From: a virus
Lineage: Duplodnaviria > Heunggongvirae > Uroviricota > Caudoviricetes
DNA: 7,330 bases
Virus record (IMG/VR): IMGVR_UViG_2531839195_000014
Strand: one strand, 5' to 3'
Shown: piece by piece, positions 738 through 7,247 of the stretch
How positions within the stretch are numbered: position 1 is the stretch's first letter
Layout of the letters: every line of letters begins with the position of its first letter
Notes under the pieces: generated by a model
Seen by the model: the letters and a program-made list of their open reading frames with translations, nothing else
Database searches by the model: none
Told to the model about the DNA's origin: nothing
Translations under genes and position numbers: made by a program

Positions 738-938
738 ATGTTGAATGTAGCTATTGAAAACCAGAACGGGTGGAATTATAGTGCACCTGCACCTCATAAA
801 ACGGGTGCCGGGATTGCTACCCCGACGATGACTACTGCGCATAACCGCGCTCAGGCGGTTTTTTATGCGTCAAGCACAGCCACATTCAGATTATGGTGGG
901 GCGTGCAGGGCAGCCGCAAGGCTGGCCGGTTTCGGTAG
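738..938 (+). CDS. small hypothetical ORF (66 aa), coding status uncertain
   Basis: ATG at 738 preceded by AAGGAAAG; same frame as the listed 630-938 ORF, which uses a TTG start. No recognisable motif. Its 3' end overlaps, in another frame, an open stretch leading into the Rha gene. Confidence 0.25.
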   Translation: MLNVAIENQNGWNYSAPAPHKTGAGIATPTMTTAHNRAQAVFYASSTATFRLWWGVQGSRKAGRFR

Positions 939-1030
939 TCACCGGTTGTAGCAACCCTGTGCGTCTCACCACCCATGAGATTGCTACCTCTGGTGGTGAG
1001 TCATTTAAACTGACTATCGAGGCTGCCATC

Positions 1031-1956: not shown

Positions 1957-2033
1957 ATGAACACCAATTATGAAGCCACTGTTGCAACTACTGATAACAT
2001 TGTTCACGAGGTTTACCTGGAAGGAAAGCATAT
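1957..2033 (+). pseudogene. 5' fragment (first 25 codons) of an 81-codon gene of unknown function, interrupted by IS600-like copy 1
   Basis: Strong RBS AAGGAG (1945-1950), 6-nt spacer, ATG 1957; reads MNTNYEATVATTDNIVHEVYLEGKH and then runs into the IS terminus at 2034. The in-frame continuation is found on the minus strand at 4194-4023. Confidence 0.6.
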
Positions 2034-2097
2034 TGAGGTAGCCTGAGTTTAACGGACACTCCTTCCTGAAATAGAATGGCATCAGAAGGAGCTAATA

Positions 2098-2385
2098 ATG
2101 AGCAGAAAAACCCAACGTTACTCTAAAGAGTTCAAAGCCGAAGCTGTCAGAACGGTTCTTGAAAATCAACTTTCGATCAGTGAAGGCGCTTCCCGATTAT
2201 CCCTTCCTGAAGGCACTTTAGGACAATGGGTTACCGCCGCCAGAAAAGGGCTCGGTACTCCTGGTTCCCGCACGCTGGCTGAACTGGAATCTGAAATTCT
2301 GCAACTGCGTAAGGCGTTAAATGAAGCTCGCCTTGAGCGCGATATATTAAAAAAGCAACAGCGTATTTTGCACAGGAGTCGCTGA
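2098..2385 (+). CDS. IS600-like OrfA (helix-turn-helix transposase subunit), 95 aa
   Basis: Product MSRKTQRYSKEFKAEAVRTVLENQLSISEGASRLSLPEGTLGQWVTAARKG... then a leucine-zipper-like ILQLRKALNEARLERDILKK; RBS GGAG upstream. I recognise this as IS600 ORF1-like. Confidence 0.85.
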   Translation: MSRKTQRYSKEFKAEAVRTVLENQLSISEGASRLSLPEGTLGQWVTAARKGLGTPGSRTLAELESEILQLRKALNEARLERDILKKQQRILHRSR

Positions 2386-2434
2386 AAAATACGCGTTAAT
2401 CGAACAATGGCGACAACAATTTCCCATTGAAGCG

Positions 2435-3226
2435 ATGTGTCAGGTATTTGGTGTATCCAGGAGCGGTTATTACAACTGGGTACAGCATGAACCCTCAGAC
2501 AGAAAACAAAGTGATGAGCGGCTAAAACTGGAGATTAAGGTGGCACATATCCGCACTCGCGAAACATATGGAACCCGGCGGCTCCAGACGGAGCTGGCAG
2601 AGAATGGCATCATCGTTGGTCGTGACCGACTGGCACGTCTTCGTAAGGAGCTGAGGCTACGCTGTAAGCAGAAACGCAAGTTCAGAGCGACTACGAACCC
2701 GAACCACAATCTGCCAGTTGCGCCAAATCTGCTGAACCAGACGTTCGCTCCTACAGCACCAAATCAGGTCTGGGTGGCGGACCTGACGTATGTTGCTGGC
2801 ATCAAAGATGTTTATACGTGCGAAATTGTCGGCTACGCCATGGGAGAGCGCATGACAAAAGAGCTGACAGGTAAAGCCCTGTTTATGGCGCTCAGGAGCC
2901 AGCGCCCACCTGCCGGGCTAATCCACCACTCTGATCGAGGTTCACAGTACTGCGCATACGATTACCGGGTCATACAGGAGCAGTCTGGTCTGAAAACATC
3001 AATGTCGCGTAAAGGTAACTGTTACGACAACGCTCCGATGGAAAGCTTCTGGGGAACGCTGAAAAATGAGAGCCTGAGCCACTATCGTTTTAATAACCGG
3101 GATGAAGCCATCTCAGTAATACGGGAATACATTGAGATTTTCTACAATCGTCAGCGTCGTCACTCTCGTCTGGGGAATATCTCCCCGGCAGCCTTCAGGG
3201 AAAAATATCATCAGATAGCTGCTTAA
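2435..3226 (+). CDS. IS600-like OrfB (DDE transposase catalytic domain), carrying a 27-bp in-frame deletion
   Basis: ATG-initiated ORF; the frame is open from 2351 and is +1 relative to orfA. Contains WVADLTYV...HHSDRGSQY...NAPMESFWGTLKNE, typical of IS3-family DDE/RNase H fold transposases. Lacks the 9 codons TQEGWLYLA that are present in copies 2 and 3. Confidence 0.8.
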   Translation: MCQVFGVSRSGYYNWVQHEPSDRKQSDERLKLEIKVAHIRTRETYGTRRLQTELAENGIIVGRDRLARLRKELRLRCKQKRKFRATTNPNHNLPVAPNLLNQTFAPTAPNQVWVADLTYVAGIKDVYTCEIVGYAMGERMTKELTGKALFMALRSQRPPAGLIHHSDRGSQYCAYDYRVIQEQSGLKTSMSRKGNCYDNAPMESFWGTLKNESLSHYRFNNRDEAISVIREYIEIFYNRQRRHSRLGNISPAAFREKYHQIAA

Positions 3227-3250
3227 AAAAAGAACAAATGGTAGTGTCCG

Positions 3251-3895
3251 CTATTGCCAGTACACCTCAGCCTTAATTGCATCAGTCAGGCGGAGCAGGG
3301 CGGCATTATCCAGAGTTGTCGGTTCTGCCATGCCGCGTATGGCCAACAGCAGATTCTGGACATAGCTGTTTTCCTGATCCATCTCAAGAGCAGTAATGTG
3401 TTTGCGTTGTTCACGGGTGGCATGATGCAGGTATTTCAGATCCCCGGCAGCATACGTAAAAATGTGCAGAAGACGCTGTGTGAACCGCAAAGTGGCTACA
3501 GAGACTTCGCAATCCTGGCAATCCTCGTGGGCGTCTGCCTGCGCGTTTTCTTCCTGGCCTCCCGCCAGTTCTTTGGTTTCTTGAGCATTATCCTGGTGGT
3601 GAACGTCGTCTGGCGCTGCTCCCGGTTTTAGTTCCCATGTCATGGAGTCTTTGCTGAGTTGATAGCGTTCACTCCAGGTAAAATCGATCTCACCTTCAGG
3701 GGGAAGGTCATTAACGACAGGAAAATTTGTGGCAACAGCTTTAAAATAGTTGCTCAGTTTTTTACCTGACTTAACGAGCAGATAGTCCAGAGTGGTGCTG
3801 GTCGATTCAAAATCGTCGCTTGCCCACAGGACGACGTCAGGTTCACCGGATGATTTTTTCGCTTTCCGTAACAGGAAGAGTGGTTTTGTGCTCAT
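3251..3895 (-). CDS. hypothetical protein, about 208 native codons, 3'-truncated and fused to 5 IS-derived codons plus stop
   Basis: Long minus-strand ORF; ATG at rc 3893-3895 with GAGG 9 nt upstream (the listed ORF starts at TTG 3910). The protein has an N-terminal region, an acidic D/E/Q-rich linker ([32 protein letters not shown]) and a C-terminal region. The frame runs through the IS copy 1 junction at 3269/3270, so the last codons (EVYWQ, stop at 3251-3253) are IS sequence. I do not recognise a family. Confidence 0.5.
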
Positions 3896-3964
3896 TGTTT
3901 TTAACCTCAACTCAGATTAAAATTACTGCGAGTGATGAATAAATGTCCCAGGTTCTTCACTCAG

Positions 3965-3995
3965 GCCTGCACACTGTGCAGGCTTTCTTTTTTTC
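3965..3995 (+). terminator. Rho-independent terminator-like hairpin (plus strand)
   Basis: GCCTGCAC (3965-3972), loop ACT, GTGCAGGC (3976-3983), followed by TTTCTTTTTTTC (3984-3995). On the minus strand the stem is followed by no U-tract, so it is directional. Confidence 0.5.
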
Positions 3996-4022
3996 AGATT
4001 TCACCTTTTAATTTCATTGCAA

Positions 4023-4194
4023 TCAGATTTGCCAGAAATTCGGCTTTTTTTCTGCGGGCAGATTATTTCCGATGTAAACTAGGCACATTTTTGTGGCACC
4101 TTCAACAAGAGTTTTAAAGTTTCCTGATAGACCGTCGATATCAACTACAGTGAATGGGGTTTCTTTATTTTCTGTTTTAATTACGTAGCCAATA
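4023..4194 (-). pseudogene. 3' fragment (last 56 codons plus stop) of the 81-codon gene begun at 1957-2033
   Basis: Minus-strand frame reads (H)IGYVIKTENKETPFTVVDIDGLSGNFKTLVEGATKMCLVYIGNNLPAEKKPNFWQI then stop. Joining 1957-2033 to rc(4194-4023) restores an uninterrupted frame (…AAG CAT ATT GGC TAC…) with a shared TAT triplet at both junctions. The listed ORF 4023-4226 owes its first 11 codons to the IS terminus. Confidence 0.6.
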
Positions 4195-4237
4195 TGAGGT
4201 GTACTGGCAATAGCGGACACTACCATTTGTTCTTTTT

Positions 4238-5055
4238 TTAAGCAGCCATCTGATGATATTTTTCCCTGAAGGCTGCCGGGGAGATATTCCCCAGACGAGA
4301 GTGACGACGCTGACGATTGTAGAAAATCTCAATGTATTCCCGTATTACTGAGATGGCTTCATCCCGGTTATTAAAACGATAGTGGCTCAGGCTCTCATTT
4401 TTCAGCGTTCCCCAGAAGCTTTCCATCGGAGCGTTGTCGTAACAGTTACCTTTACGCGACATTGATGTTTTCAGACCAGACTGCTCCTGTATGACCCGGT
4501 AATCGTATGCGCAGTACTGTGAACCTCGATCAGAGTGGTGGATTAGCCCGGCAGGTGGGCGCTGGCTCCTGAGCGCCTTAAACAGGGCTTTACCTGTCAG
4601 CTCTTTTGTCATGCGCTCTCCCATGGCGTAGCCGACAATTTCGCACGTATAAACATCTTTGATGCCAGCGAGGTACAACCATCCCTCCTGTGTGGCAACA
4701 TACGTCAGGTCCGCCACCCAGACCTGATTTGGTGCTGTAGGAGCGAACGTCTGGTTCAGCAGATTTGGCGCAACTGGCAGATTGTGGTTCGGGTTCGTAG
4801 TCGCTCTGAACTTGCGTTTCTGCTTACAGCGTAGCCTCAGCTCCTTACGAAGACGTGCCAGTCGGTCACGACCAACGATGATGCCATTCTCTGCCAGCTC
4901 CGTCTGGAGCCGCCGGGTTCCATATGTTTCGCGAGTGCGGATATGTGCCACCTTAATCTCCAGTTTTAGCCGCTCATCACTTGTTTTCTGTCTGAGGGTT
5001 CATGCTGTACCCAGTTGTAATAACCGCTCCTGGATACACCAAATACCTGACACAT
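4238..5055 (-). pseudogene. IS600-like orfB, copy 2, frameshifted by a 1-bp deletion
   Basis: Copy 2 has TT at 4981-4982 where copies 1 and 3 have TTT (sense strand AAA to AA). Sense reading becomes ...RKQVMSG-stop shortly after the orfB start; the downstream catalytic region (4238-4951) is intact but out of frame. Confidence 0.8.
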
Positions 5056-5104
5056 CGCTTCAATGGGAAATTGTTGTCGCCATTGTTCGATTAACGCGTA
5101 TTTT

Positions 5105-5392
5105 TCAGCGACTCCTGTGCAAAATACGCTGTTGCTTTTTTAATATATCGCGCTCAAGGCGAGCTTCATTTAACGCCTTACGCAGTTGCAGAATTTCAGA
5201 TTCCAGTTCAGCCACCGTGCGGGAACCAGGAGTACCGAGCCCTTTTCTGGCGGCGGTAACCCATTGTCCTAAAGTGCCTTCAGGAAGGGATAATCGGGAA
5301 GCGCCTTCACTGATCGAAAGTTGATTTTCAAGAACCGTTCTGACAGCTTCGGCTTTGAACTCTTTAGAGTAACGTTGGGTTTTTCTGCTCAT
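5105..5392 (-). CDS. IS600-like OrfA, copy 2 (95 aa)
   Basis: Identical to copy 1 OrfA except L60V (…GSRTVAELE…). Confidence 0.85.
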   Translation of the reverse strand: MSRKTQRYSKEFKAEAVRTVLENQLSISEGASRLSLPEGTLGQWVTAARKGLGTPGSRTVAELESEILQLRKALNEARLERDILKKQQRILHRSR

Positions 5393-5456
5393 TATTAGCT
5401 CCTTCTGATGCCATTCTATTTCAGGAAGGAGTGTCCGTTAAACTCAGGCTACCTCA

Positions 5457-6228
5457 ATTCCCCAGACGAGAGTGACGACGCTGACGATTGTAGAAAATCT
5501 CAATGTATTCCCGTATTACTGAGATGGCTTCATCCCGGTTATTAAAACGATAGTGGCTCAGGCTCTCATTTTTCAGCGTTCCCCAGAAGCTTTCCATCGG
5601 AGCGTTGTCGTAACAGTTACCTTTACGCGACATTGATGTTTTCAGACCAGACTGCTCCTGTATGACCCGGTAATCGTATGCGCAGTACTGTGAACCTCGA
5701 TCAGAGTGGTGGATTAGCCCGGCAGGTGGGCGCTGGCTCCTGAGCGCCATAAACAGGGCTTTACCTGTCAGCTCTTTTGTCATGCGCTCTCCCATGGCGT
5801 AGCCGACAATTTCGCACGTATAAACATCTTTGATGCCAGCGAGGTACAACCATCCCTCCTGTGTGGCAACATACGTCAGGTCCGCCACCCAGACCTGATT
5901 TGGTGCTGTAGGAGCGAACGTCTGGTTCAGCAGATTTGGCGCAACTGGCAGATTGTGTGTTCGGGTTCGTAGTCGCTCTGAACTTGCGTTTCTGCTTACA
6001 GCGTAGCCTCAGCTCCTTACGAAGACGTGCCAGTCGGTCACGACCAACGATGATGCCATTCTCTGCCAGCTCCGTCTGGAGCCGCCGGGTTCCATATGTT
6101 TCGCGAGTGCGGATATGTGCCACCTTAATCTCCAGTTTTAACCGCTCATCACTTTGTTTTCTGTCTGAGGGTTCATGCTGTACCCAGTTGTAATAACCGC
6201 TCCTGGATACACCAAATACCTGACACAT
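5457..6228 (-). pseudogene. IS600-like orfB, copy 3, 1-bp insertion frameshift and 3' truncation
   Basis: Extra T at 5958 (GATTGTGTGTTCGGG versus GATTGTGGTTCGGG in copy 2) shifts the frame after ...RATTNPN. The 3' end is cut at 5457, and the listed ORF 5454-5888 terminates in copy 2 IRL sequence. Confidence 0.8.
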
Positions 6229-6277
6229 CGCTTCAATGGGAAATTGTTGTCGCCATTGTTCGATTAACGCGTATTTT

Positions 6278-6565
6278 TCAGCGACTCCTGTGCAAAATAC
6301 GCTGTTGCTTTTTTAATATATCGCGCTCAAGGCGAGCTTCATTTAACGCCTTACGCAGTTGCAGAATTTCAGATTCCAGTTCAGCCACCGTGCGGGAACC
6401 AGGAGTACCGAGCCCTTTTCTGGCGGCGGTAACCCATTGTCCTAAAGTGCCTTCAGGAAGGGATAATCGGGAAGCGCCTTCACTGATCGAAAGTTGATTT
6501 TCAAGAACCGTTCTGACAGCTTCGGCTTTGAACTCTTTAGAGTAACGTTGGGTTTTTCTGCTCAT
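6278..6565 (-). CDS. IS600-like OrfA, copy 3 (95 aa)
   Basis: Protein identical to copy 2 OrfA. Confidence 0.85.
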   Translation of the reverse strand: MSRKTQRYSKEFKAEAVRTVLENQLSISEGASRLSLPEGTLGQWVTAARKGLGTPGSRTVAELESEILQLRKALNEARLERDILKKQQRILHRSR

Positions 6566-6869
6566 TATTAGCTCCTTCTGATGCCATTTTATTTCAGGAA
6601 GGAGTGTCCGTTAAACTCAGGCTACCTCACATGTCTCTGGCGCAATGCCCGGGCTTTTTATTCGCACATCGTGAGGAATGCACCGTGGAAATTAAAAAAT
6701 CATTAATCCCCGTTATACCGAAAGTGGCGCAGTAGACTGTGACGTTTTTTTTGACGACAGGGACCAGGCAGTCCCCTACACAGCCACCGCTGATGATGTC
6801 GCACCGACGGGTCAGCGAATCTGGCAGGAACTGCAAAGTGGCAAATGGGGTGAGATAGCCCCATTCACT

Positions 6870-7247
6870 GTGACACCAGAAATGCTGGAAGCGGCCAGAG
6901 AGGCCAGACGTCAGGAAATTGAAGCATGGCGCACAGAACAGGAGGCGAAGCCGTTCACGTTTGAATGGAACGGTCGTATCTGGAATGCTGGCCCCAACTC
7001 ACTGGGCCGCCTTTATCCGGTGGTAATGGCTGCGAAATCCGACATTGTACGGGACGTGATGACGTGGGGTGATGCCGATAATCAGCAGGTGAAACTGTCG
7101 ATGCCGGAACTGGAAGAACTGGCGGCAGCAATGGTGCAGGCGCAGGTCGATCGCAACGATGAGATTTATCGCCGTCAGCGTGAAATGAAAGAGGAGCTGA
7201 GCGGTCTGGATGATTTGGCTTCAATTCGGGCGTTTGACGTTGAGTAA
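6870..7247 (+). CDS. phage tail-associated DUF4376-like protein (tail-fibre-assembly-like region); 5' end disrupted or uncertain
   Basis: Product …EMLEAAREARRQEIEAWRTEQEA…MTWGDADNQQVKLSMPELEELAAAMVQAQVDRNDEIYRRQREMKEELSGLDDLASIRAFDVE resembles, from memory, the DUF4376 family found beside prophage tail-fibre genes. The frame is open upstream to 6696 with coding-like sequence but no start codon or RBS before GTG 6870 / ATG 6882. The stop overlaps the next start (TAATG). Confidence 0.45.
   Translation: MTPEMLEAAREARRQEIEAWRTEQEAKPFTFEWNGRIWNAGPNSLGRLYPVVMAAKSDIVRDVMTWGDADNQQVKLSMPELEELAAAMVQAQVDRNDEIYRRQREMKEELSGLDDLASIRAFDVE

Follow-up and report, generated by a model that had tools for sequence, protein, structure and literature searches.

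The subject of this report is the spacer between the racC and recE genes of Rac-like prophages, as it occurs in a stretch of viral DNA of 7,330 nucleotides (nt) (IMG/VR record IMGVR_UViG_2531839195_000014; the whole stretch is called the window below, and its strand as given the plus strand). On balance, we consider it probable that the spacer carries a small gene on the strand opposite to that of its neighbors, specifying a cis-antisense noncoding RNA that faces recE. The window matches chromosomes of Shigella flexneri and Escherichia coli, the protein of its 208-codon open reading frame (ORF) being 100% identical, and the region is a Rac-like prophage that has been broken up by the insertion sequence IS600. 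What is left of the two genes, racC'-recE', is a prophage relic of 925 base pairs (bp) between the first two IS600 copies, which are inverted. Both genes lie on the minus strand and are co-directional, forming one operon. The downstream gene, recE' (3272..3895, minus strand), specifies the N-terminal part of exodeoxyribonuclease VIII; it matches the Pfam domain PF06630 (Exonuc_VIII) with 227 bits (cut-off 25; E = 2.7e-67), and RecE is also the annotation of this gene in homologous loci. The initial annotation, which was made from the sequence alone, treated it as a 208-codon gene. The ORF is there, but it is not a whole gene: it comprises the first 208 codons of recE, which IS600 interrupts at 3269/3270, and the C-terminal nuclease part is gone. 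The upstream gene, racC' (3994..4194, minus strand), is the 3' part of racC; it is frameshifted, is cut by IS600 at 4195, and ends in a TGA stop codon at 3996..3994.

The intercistronic spacer extends from 3896 to 3993. The motifs that had been noted as signs of a small transcript of about 65 nt fall exactly there, and all were found as described: TTGTTT (3895-3900), a 17-nt spacer, TAAAAT (3918-3923), and a 6-bp stem (GAGTGA 3930-3935/TCACTC 3957-3962), followed by a terminator. Among 5,426 complete E. coli genomes, 1,783 carry the spacer, and many phage contigs have it as well. It occurs as two main alleles, A (found in the window, with a variant A' in locus L135) and B (found in K-12), together with about 30 minor variants. 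RacC homologues are confined to Escherichia and Shigella. A wider search brought in only three loci from a scan of genome contigs, and scanning viral contigs with a RecE profile gave close relatives only.

The terminator of the racC-recE spacer

The spacer ends in a Rho-independent terminator on the plus strand (3963..3993). Its stem (3963-3972/3976-3985) encloses the loop ACT, and its T-tract runs to 3993, abutting the racC stop codon; the tail that follows the stem-loop (3963-3985), up to 3993, is TCTTTTTTT. With 10 pairs, six of them G-C, and a loop of 3 nt, it is the top terminator-like site of the whole window. The hairpin alone has a folding energy of -15.5 kcal/mol, and none of 1000 shuffled sequences was as stable, so that its initial description as a strong terminator holds. 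The terminator is kept in every racC-recE locus examined, and in every allele the T-tract is 3' of the hairpin on the plus strand only. No terminator is found at loci L009 and L157/L158, where recE has a different upstream neighbor.

The stem is preserved when its sequence changes. Across 19 variants, 90.9% of the stem cells are paired, and three pairs are changed on both sides, by exchanges of AU with UA and of AU with GC; in controls with the partner strand slid out of place, only 16-42% of the cells are paired. The covariation comes mostly from a single split between alleles A and B and, because sampling reached only close relatives, rests on essentially two or three alleles in total. Within the alleles, single-nucleotide polymorphisms in the terminator are mostly in the loop or produce G:U pairs. 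The covariance of hairpins across homologous loci, proposed initially as a check, is thus borne out by compensatory changes in the terminator, but not by the 6-bp stem, which is out of register between alleles A and B. As a separate observation, the loop (3973-3975) occurs in reverse-complement forms over an unchanged stem: ACT and AGT in allele A, and CCATA and TATGG in allele B (locus L161 and seven others). Such flips are a signature of template switching at a quasi-palindrome.

In K-12, the homologous terminator functions in living cells. Term-seq of E. coli MG1655 yielded a curated 3' end at NC_000913.3:1417486(+), in the class 'antisense racC' (Adams et al., 2021; PMC7815308, Supplementary file 1). 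The position is present three times, once per growth condition, with scores of 185,664 and 146,140; as a yardstick, the primary terminator of uspF scores 112,770-347,680 (Adams et al., 2021). The listed sequence maps exactly to the K-12 allele, and the 3' end is 4 nt beyond the stem, in the U-tract. The main text of that paper does not discuss this 3' end. The same Term-seq tables list no 3' ends of ralA, ralR, kilR, or sieB, and no further plus-strand 3' end across recE (Adams et al., 2021). In sum, the terminator is genuine and conserved, and in the K-12 homologue it operates in vivo.

Since the hairpin begins 8-10 nt past the racC stop codon and its sense-strand form folds no less well, it might act mainly in the racC-recE messenger RNA (mRNA), either by stabilizing the 3' end of a processed racC mRNA or as an RNase III or other processing site that uncouples racC from recE, with termination on the plus strand being a side effect. 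The two genes have been published as a linked pair in retron defense, RecE being a trigger of retron toxin systems and RacC a blocker, and with such opposed roles differential expression of the two is plausible. However, the U run is found only on the plus strand, in all alleles, and in K-12 an abundant plus-strand 3' end coexists with a silent sense operon. We consider a role primarily in the sense mRNA improbable.

A candidate promoter and a predicted antisense RNA

Upstream of the terminator are two hexamers that could form a promoter on the plus strand. The putative -35 element, TTGTTT (3895..3900), agrees with the consensus at three of six positions (TTG) and overlaps the recE start codon, which reads CAT at 3893-3895 on the plus strand. 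After 17 nt comes the putative -10 element, TAAAAT (3918..3923), which agrees at five of six positions, with A2 and T6 present. By a rough sigma-70 weight matrix of our own, the site scores 11.5. Over the 600 nt that precede the terminator, no other plus-strand site does as well, and of the 14,598 positions in the window it ranks within the top 7. Its homologue in K-12, with a spacer of 18 nt, scores 10.8 and is also the best plus-strand candidate upstream of its terminator. TAAAAT is invariant across all terminator-bearing racC-recE loci and is missing in L157/L158. A sigma-70-type promoter at 3895-3923 is plausible but unproven. The RNA made from it would have its 5' end near 3930, as judged from the position of the -10 element only.

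A run of T separates the recE start codon from the Shine-Dalgarno sequence (window 3896-3902), and its length is polymorphic. The run has five T in the window and in loci L135, L141, and L009, six in most loci, and seven in L004 and L008. These lengths translate into spacers of 17, 18, and 19 nt, respectively, in the candidate promoter, and also alter the spacing between the recE Shine-Dalgarno sequence and AUG.

The predicted antisense RNA (3930..3993, plus strand) would consist of a 5' hairpin and the adjoining terminator hairpin, and would be complementary to the racC-recE intercistronic mRNA. Its predicted length is 60-65 nt in the window, with the end near 3990-3993, and 63-66 nt in K-12, where the tail is UAUUUCU. 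Two adjacent hairpins are predicted for both alleles, with folding energies of -26.8 kcal/mol in the window (z = -4.6) and -24.7 kcal/mol in the other allele (z about -4.7), and they abut without a single-stranded spacer. The 5' hairpin (3930..3962, plus strand; 33 nt) is made of the 6-bp stem, GAGTGA/TCACTC, and an inner 4-bp stem. By itself it folds with -9.1 kcal/mol, a value equaled by 1.5% of shuffles. The hairpin is weakened in L135 by a G.G mismatch, and the 5' hairpins of alleles A and B are out of register in a MAFFT alignment. Covariation in support of the 6-bp stem was considered and rejected, as only an alignment shifted by hand yields a single G:C to C:G swap. Of the initial proposal of a 65-nt antisense RNA, the plus-strand 3' end (in K-12), the conserved terminator, and the best upstream promoter candidate, which together give 60-66 nt, have stood up, but the 6-bp stem lacks robust conservation. 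Similarly, the expectation of conservation in homologous loci is borne out for TAAAAT and the terminator at racC-recE loci, and fails for the 5' hairpin, which is at chance level in B and A'.

The RNA is unlikely to be a message. The sole plus-strand ORF in this region (3932-4117) starts with GTG and, as the initial annotation stated, passes through the terminator hairpin. Translation of a small protein from 3932, or from an ATG at 3944, is conceivable in that this ORF exists. The terminated RNA would then lack a stop codon, because the ORF goes through the terminator; no Shine-Dalgarno sequence is evident, and the K-12 allele offers only an ORF of nine codons with an unrelated sequence. No conserved plus-strand ORF was found across the spacer alleles. 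A small protein is hardly credible on these grounds, and a plus-strand protein gene was rejected, its ORF being unconserved and crossing the terminator.

The RNA belongs to no family that we could recognize. In permissive Rfam scans the best scores were 19.9 bits for OmrA-B (threshold 40) in the window and 18.9 bits for Phe_leader (threshold 55) in K-12, and membership in an Rfam family was rejected because all scores were below the gathering score. RefSeq annotates RalA and KilS in K-12 and nothing at the position of 1417486(+). Our literature searches on racC, recE, antisense, terminator, and the hairpin sequence gave no name for an RNA here.

A comparison of the window with K-12 reveals where the alleles differ. 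Identity is 95% over the first 300 nt of recE and 97% over the segment that holds the translation start and the candidate promoter; it drops to 49% in the RNA body and 68% in the terminator hairpin, and is 90.5% over the last 198 nt of racC. The RNA body and terminator (window 3924-3985 versus L002 8417-8483) are thus a sharp island of divergence amid conserved flanks. The two alleles are nearly equal in number (39 versus 38) beside nearly identical RecE N-termini, which indicates that the spacer reassorts as a cassette. The island suggests cassette exchange or diversifying selection. In loci L017 and L026 and in similar viral contigs, the same A-type spacer is followed by a variant RecE that differs at its N-terminus (MNTDKQVYPLYYEAK...) and becomes K-12-like again further along; the recE start codon marks the mosaic joint.

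The cassette-like reassortment, together with the loop flips, which are typical of palindrome-driven template switching, would also be seen if the spacer merely held a quasi-palindrome where phage modules meet in a mosaic, a product of chance or a relic without present function. That is highly improbable, however, as the stem has been preserved through compensatory and wobble changes, the orientation of the T-tract is constant, and the terminator is used in vivo.

Several observations weigh against an antisense RNA with a promoter of its own. The Term-seq support pertains to the K-12 allele and not to the window, the two sharing 82% identity over 201 nt. The candidate promoter, TTGTTT-17-TAAAAT, has 8 of 12 consensus matches and falls below the cut-off of a standard 9-of-12 scan. 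Its conservation cannot be separated from that of the recE translation start region, which is made up of the same 31 nt, and locus L009 retains most of this segment without any terminator. There are no entries near 14154xx or 14174xx in the Cappable-seq and SMRT-Cappable-seq supplements, and no match among the listed rows of the Kim 2012 table. The RNA is absent from the supplementary tables of a paper that predicts small RNAs from Hfq RIL-seq, and it has no Rfam family (Rfam 15), the scan of the whole window giving no match to it at E <= 1. The 5' hairpin is marginal, and its equivalents in alleles B and A' are at chance level (equaled by 19% and 38% of shuffles, respectively). Finally, with its predicted start the RNA would miss the recE Shine-Dalgarno sequence and start codon, and a simple block of ribosome binding is therefore not expected.

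Alternatively, the terminator may have no dedicated promoter, and serve as an orientation-specific insulator that halts antisense transcripts from inside or beyond recE before they reach racC, ydaE, kilR, and the early operon. Term-seq defines only a 3' end, the promoter is sub-threshold, and the Rac region is AT-rich foreign DNA, in which spurious antisense starts are common. In the window, read-out from IS600 would also be halted, as the IS600 transposase genes at 2098-3226 read toward the terminator. Yet the score of the 3' end is very high for a by-product, and the Term-seq tables have no other plus-strand 3' end across recE. Rho would normally stop long untranslated antisense RNAs sooner, no better promoter is present within 600 nt upstream, and an island of 49% identity between conserved flanks would be left unexplained. 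With regard to IS600, the insertions are recent and the terminator is widespread without them. The initial annotation had offered insulation from read-out of the adjacent insertion sequence as a possible reason for the terminator; the same terminator in about 1,780 E. coli genomes and in phage contigs with no IS600 nearby contradicts this, since the terminator predates the insertions. Blocking of IS600 read-out in the window can only be incidental at most. Insulation in the more general sense is possible, if rather unlikely, and we continue to favor the antisense RNA.

The prophage region around the relic

The module itself is intact in the window, but both flanking genes have been destroyed by IS600, and it is a relic here. 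IS600 copy 1 (2032..3269, plus strand) is on the recE side of the relic, and its transposase genes point at the terminator. Copy 2 (4195..5458, minus strand) is on the racC side, and copy 3 (5457-6629, minus strand) is next after it. Copies 2 and 3 are head-to-tail and abutting, their boundaries overlapping by 2 nt, and copy 1 is inverted relative to both. The ORFs of the IS600 copies carry transposase domains. A 34-nt imperfect palindrome, GCGTATTTTGCACAGGAGTCGCTGAAAAATACGC, is found at the end of the first ORF in every copy (2361-2394, 5096-5129, and 6269-6302), which is presumably where the frameshift signal of the IS3 family is to be expected.

The order of the prophage genes has also changed. 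In E. coli FDAARGOS_944 (locus L001), recE and a Rha gene share one strand, the Rha gene being upstream of ydaE-racC. The window has the Rha gene on the strand opposite to recE, with IS600 between the two segments (1-2031 versus 3270-4194); this implies that the prophage was inverted or rearranged through IS600.

A cluster of Rfam matches on the plus strand (503-976) lies before, and overlaps the start of, a gene of the Ash/Rha family (ORF 893-1585; PF10554, PF09669). Two of the matches are above threshold, isrK (789-865; 56.6 bits) and C4 antisense RNA (889-976; 75.7 bits), and two are below it, one DicF-like (503-553) and one STnc100-like (565-707). The cluster looks like a control region in which RNAs regulate immunity or an antirepressor. 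Beyond the last IS600 copy, an ORF on the plus strand (6870-7247) has a DUF4376 domain (E = 8e-17) and is probably another fragment of the prophage.

Possible control of recE and its known analogues

The sense strand of the recE leader has two features on which an antisense RNA might act. One is a weak hairpin, UUUUAAUCU/AGGUUAAAA (3899..3922, minus strand), that holds part of the recE Shine-Dalgarno sequence (GAGG, 3908..3905) and whose DNA overlaps the putative -10 element. It folds with -6.3 kcal/mol in context, which 8% of shuffles equal. The other, which is speculative, is a possible upstream ORF of 17 codons (3907..3960, minus strand), with a GTG start just after the terminator hairpin and a TGA inside the Shine-Dalgarno region of recE. 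An ORF of the same length is present in K-12, but the peptide is unrelated (a 17-residue sequence versus VCIRQDHSLNKTNFNLS). The start is ATG in loci L017 and L141, the ORF is frameshifted in L142, and the start is lost in L135. In all seven of the racC-recE spacer alleles checked, such an ORF stops 11-27 nt before the recE AUG, although the frames differ and the starts are weak; by our own rough estimate, an upstream ORF of this kind has a chance expectation of more than 50%. The predicted antisense RNA wholly covers the upstream ORF, its complementarity to the mRNA extending from just past the racC stop codon to about 7 nt upstream of the Shine-Dalgarno hairpin. A type I toxin-antitoxin pair of the hok/Sok or RalR/RalA kind was considered and rejected: opposite the RNA there is only the unconserved 17-codon sense ORF, and no toxin-like ORF.

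An effect of the RNA on recE expression is inferred from these arrangements. The proposed sequence of events would begin at the sigma-70-type promoter (TTGTTT-17/18-TAAAAT), which would overlap both the start codon and the ribosome-binding region of recE. From a start near 3930, transcription would proceed for about 60-66 nt, to the terminator that abuts the racC stop codon, yielding a noncoding RNA with two hairpins and full complementarity to the intercistronic part of the mRNA. Its most likely function would be to keep recE low relative to racC during leaky transcription of the operon. Because RecE triggers retrons and RacC blocks them, holding recE below racC under leaky transcription would make biological sense. 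Three routes to this end can be envisaged. The RNA and the mRNA may form a duplex of about 63 bp, which RNase III would cut, separating recE from racC. The upstream ORF (3960..3907) may be blocked, so that coupled translation of recE would be lost. Lastly, RNA polymerases may collide, as the antisense promoter would sit face-to-face with the operon on the recE start.

The predicted RNA is in no described RNA family, and its closest known analogues are the sar RNA of phage P22 and the OOP RNA of phage lambda. P22 sar is a cis-antisense RNA of about 68 nt whose promoter lies in the arc-ant intercistronic spacer; its transcription opposes that of the operon and is ended by an intrinsic terminator, and sar inhibits anti-repression. 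The predicted RNA is like sar in being short, in having its putative promoter in or near an operon spacer of a temperate phage, in running counter to the operon, and in having an intrinsic terminator. However, sar covers the ribosome-binding site of ant, whereas the predicted RNA ends short of the recE Shine-Dalgarno sequence and has a promoter that would overlap the start codon. The targets also differ, an antirepressor in one case and a recombination exonuclease in the other, and the sequences are unrelated. Lambda OOP, an antisense RNA of 77 nt, has a promoter and a terminator of its own, and its duplex with the sense mRNA is cleaved by RNase III. It resembles the predicted RNA in being antisense to a lambdoid early operon and in having a terminator and a promoter, which is only a candidate in the present case. 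OOP overlaps the 3' end of the cII coding region, whereas the overlap here is with an untranslated spacer or, at most, with the possible upstream ORF.

Other antisense systems share single aspects with the racC-recE spacer. CopA of plasmid R1 is a cis-antisense RNA. In CopA/CopT-tap and in hok/mok/Sok, pairing with the leader, upstream of the ribosome-binding site of the main gene, is independent of Hfq, and translation of a short leader ORF is coupled to that from a structurally masked downstream start. The 17-codon ORF that ends in the recE Shine-Dalgarno region, the weak masking hairpin, and the RNA covering the ORF are reminiscent of tap, but the upstream ORF is expected by chance and unconserved in frame and start, and the hairpin that would do the masking is weak. 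We see a likeness here and do not assign the RNA to this type. RalA, from the same Rac prophage, is annotated in K-12 as the type I antitoxin of RalR. It is likewise a small RNA on the opposite strand of the same leftward Rac operon. RalA is about 179 nt long, overlaps rcbA, and needs Hfq to repress the toxin. Unlike the situation with RalA, there is no toxin-like ORF opposite the predicted RNA, and the Term-seq list has the 3' end of the predicted RNA but lacks that of RalA. In phages P1 and P7, antisense alleles of C4 set the specificity, as seen in the heteroimmunity of P1 versus P7; C4, which acts on ant/icd, is released from the sense transcript by processing. Its allele specificity may parallel the two sharply diverged alleles of the RNA body here. 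Processing from the sense transcript distinguishes C4 from the predicted RNA, and the C4-family RNA elsewhere in the window (889-976) is unrelated.

For the window itself the finding is of little importance, as the module is a well-preserved relic beside two destroyed genes. In the wider family, an abundant small RNA that lies exactly between racC and recE is unnamed in RefSeq K-12, in Rfam, and in the literature searched, and if it acts on the operon, it would add a post-transcriptional layer to the control of racC-recE. The recE and recT genes of Rac, a classic system and the basis of RecET recombineering, are silent in wild-type K-12 and are activated by sbcA mutations. A joint reading, quite unlikely when taken as a whole, would be that Rac-like prophages, present in about a third of complete E. 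coli genomes, constitutively make an antisense RNA that gates RecE relative to RacC; it would block the short upstream ORF, and translation of that ORF would be what makes the ribosome-binding site of recE accessible. The RNA body, with its two sharply diverged alleles, would then come in two specificity types, and a resident prophage would silence the recE of an incoming phage only if that phage had the same allele. If true, this would partly explain why recE is silent in K-12 unless sbcA mutations arise, and it would amount to an allele-specific control of superinfection at the RNA level.

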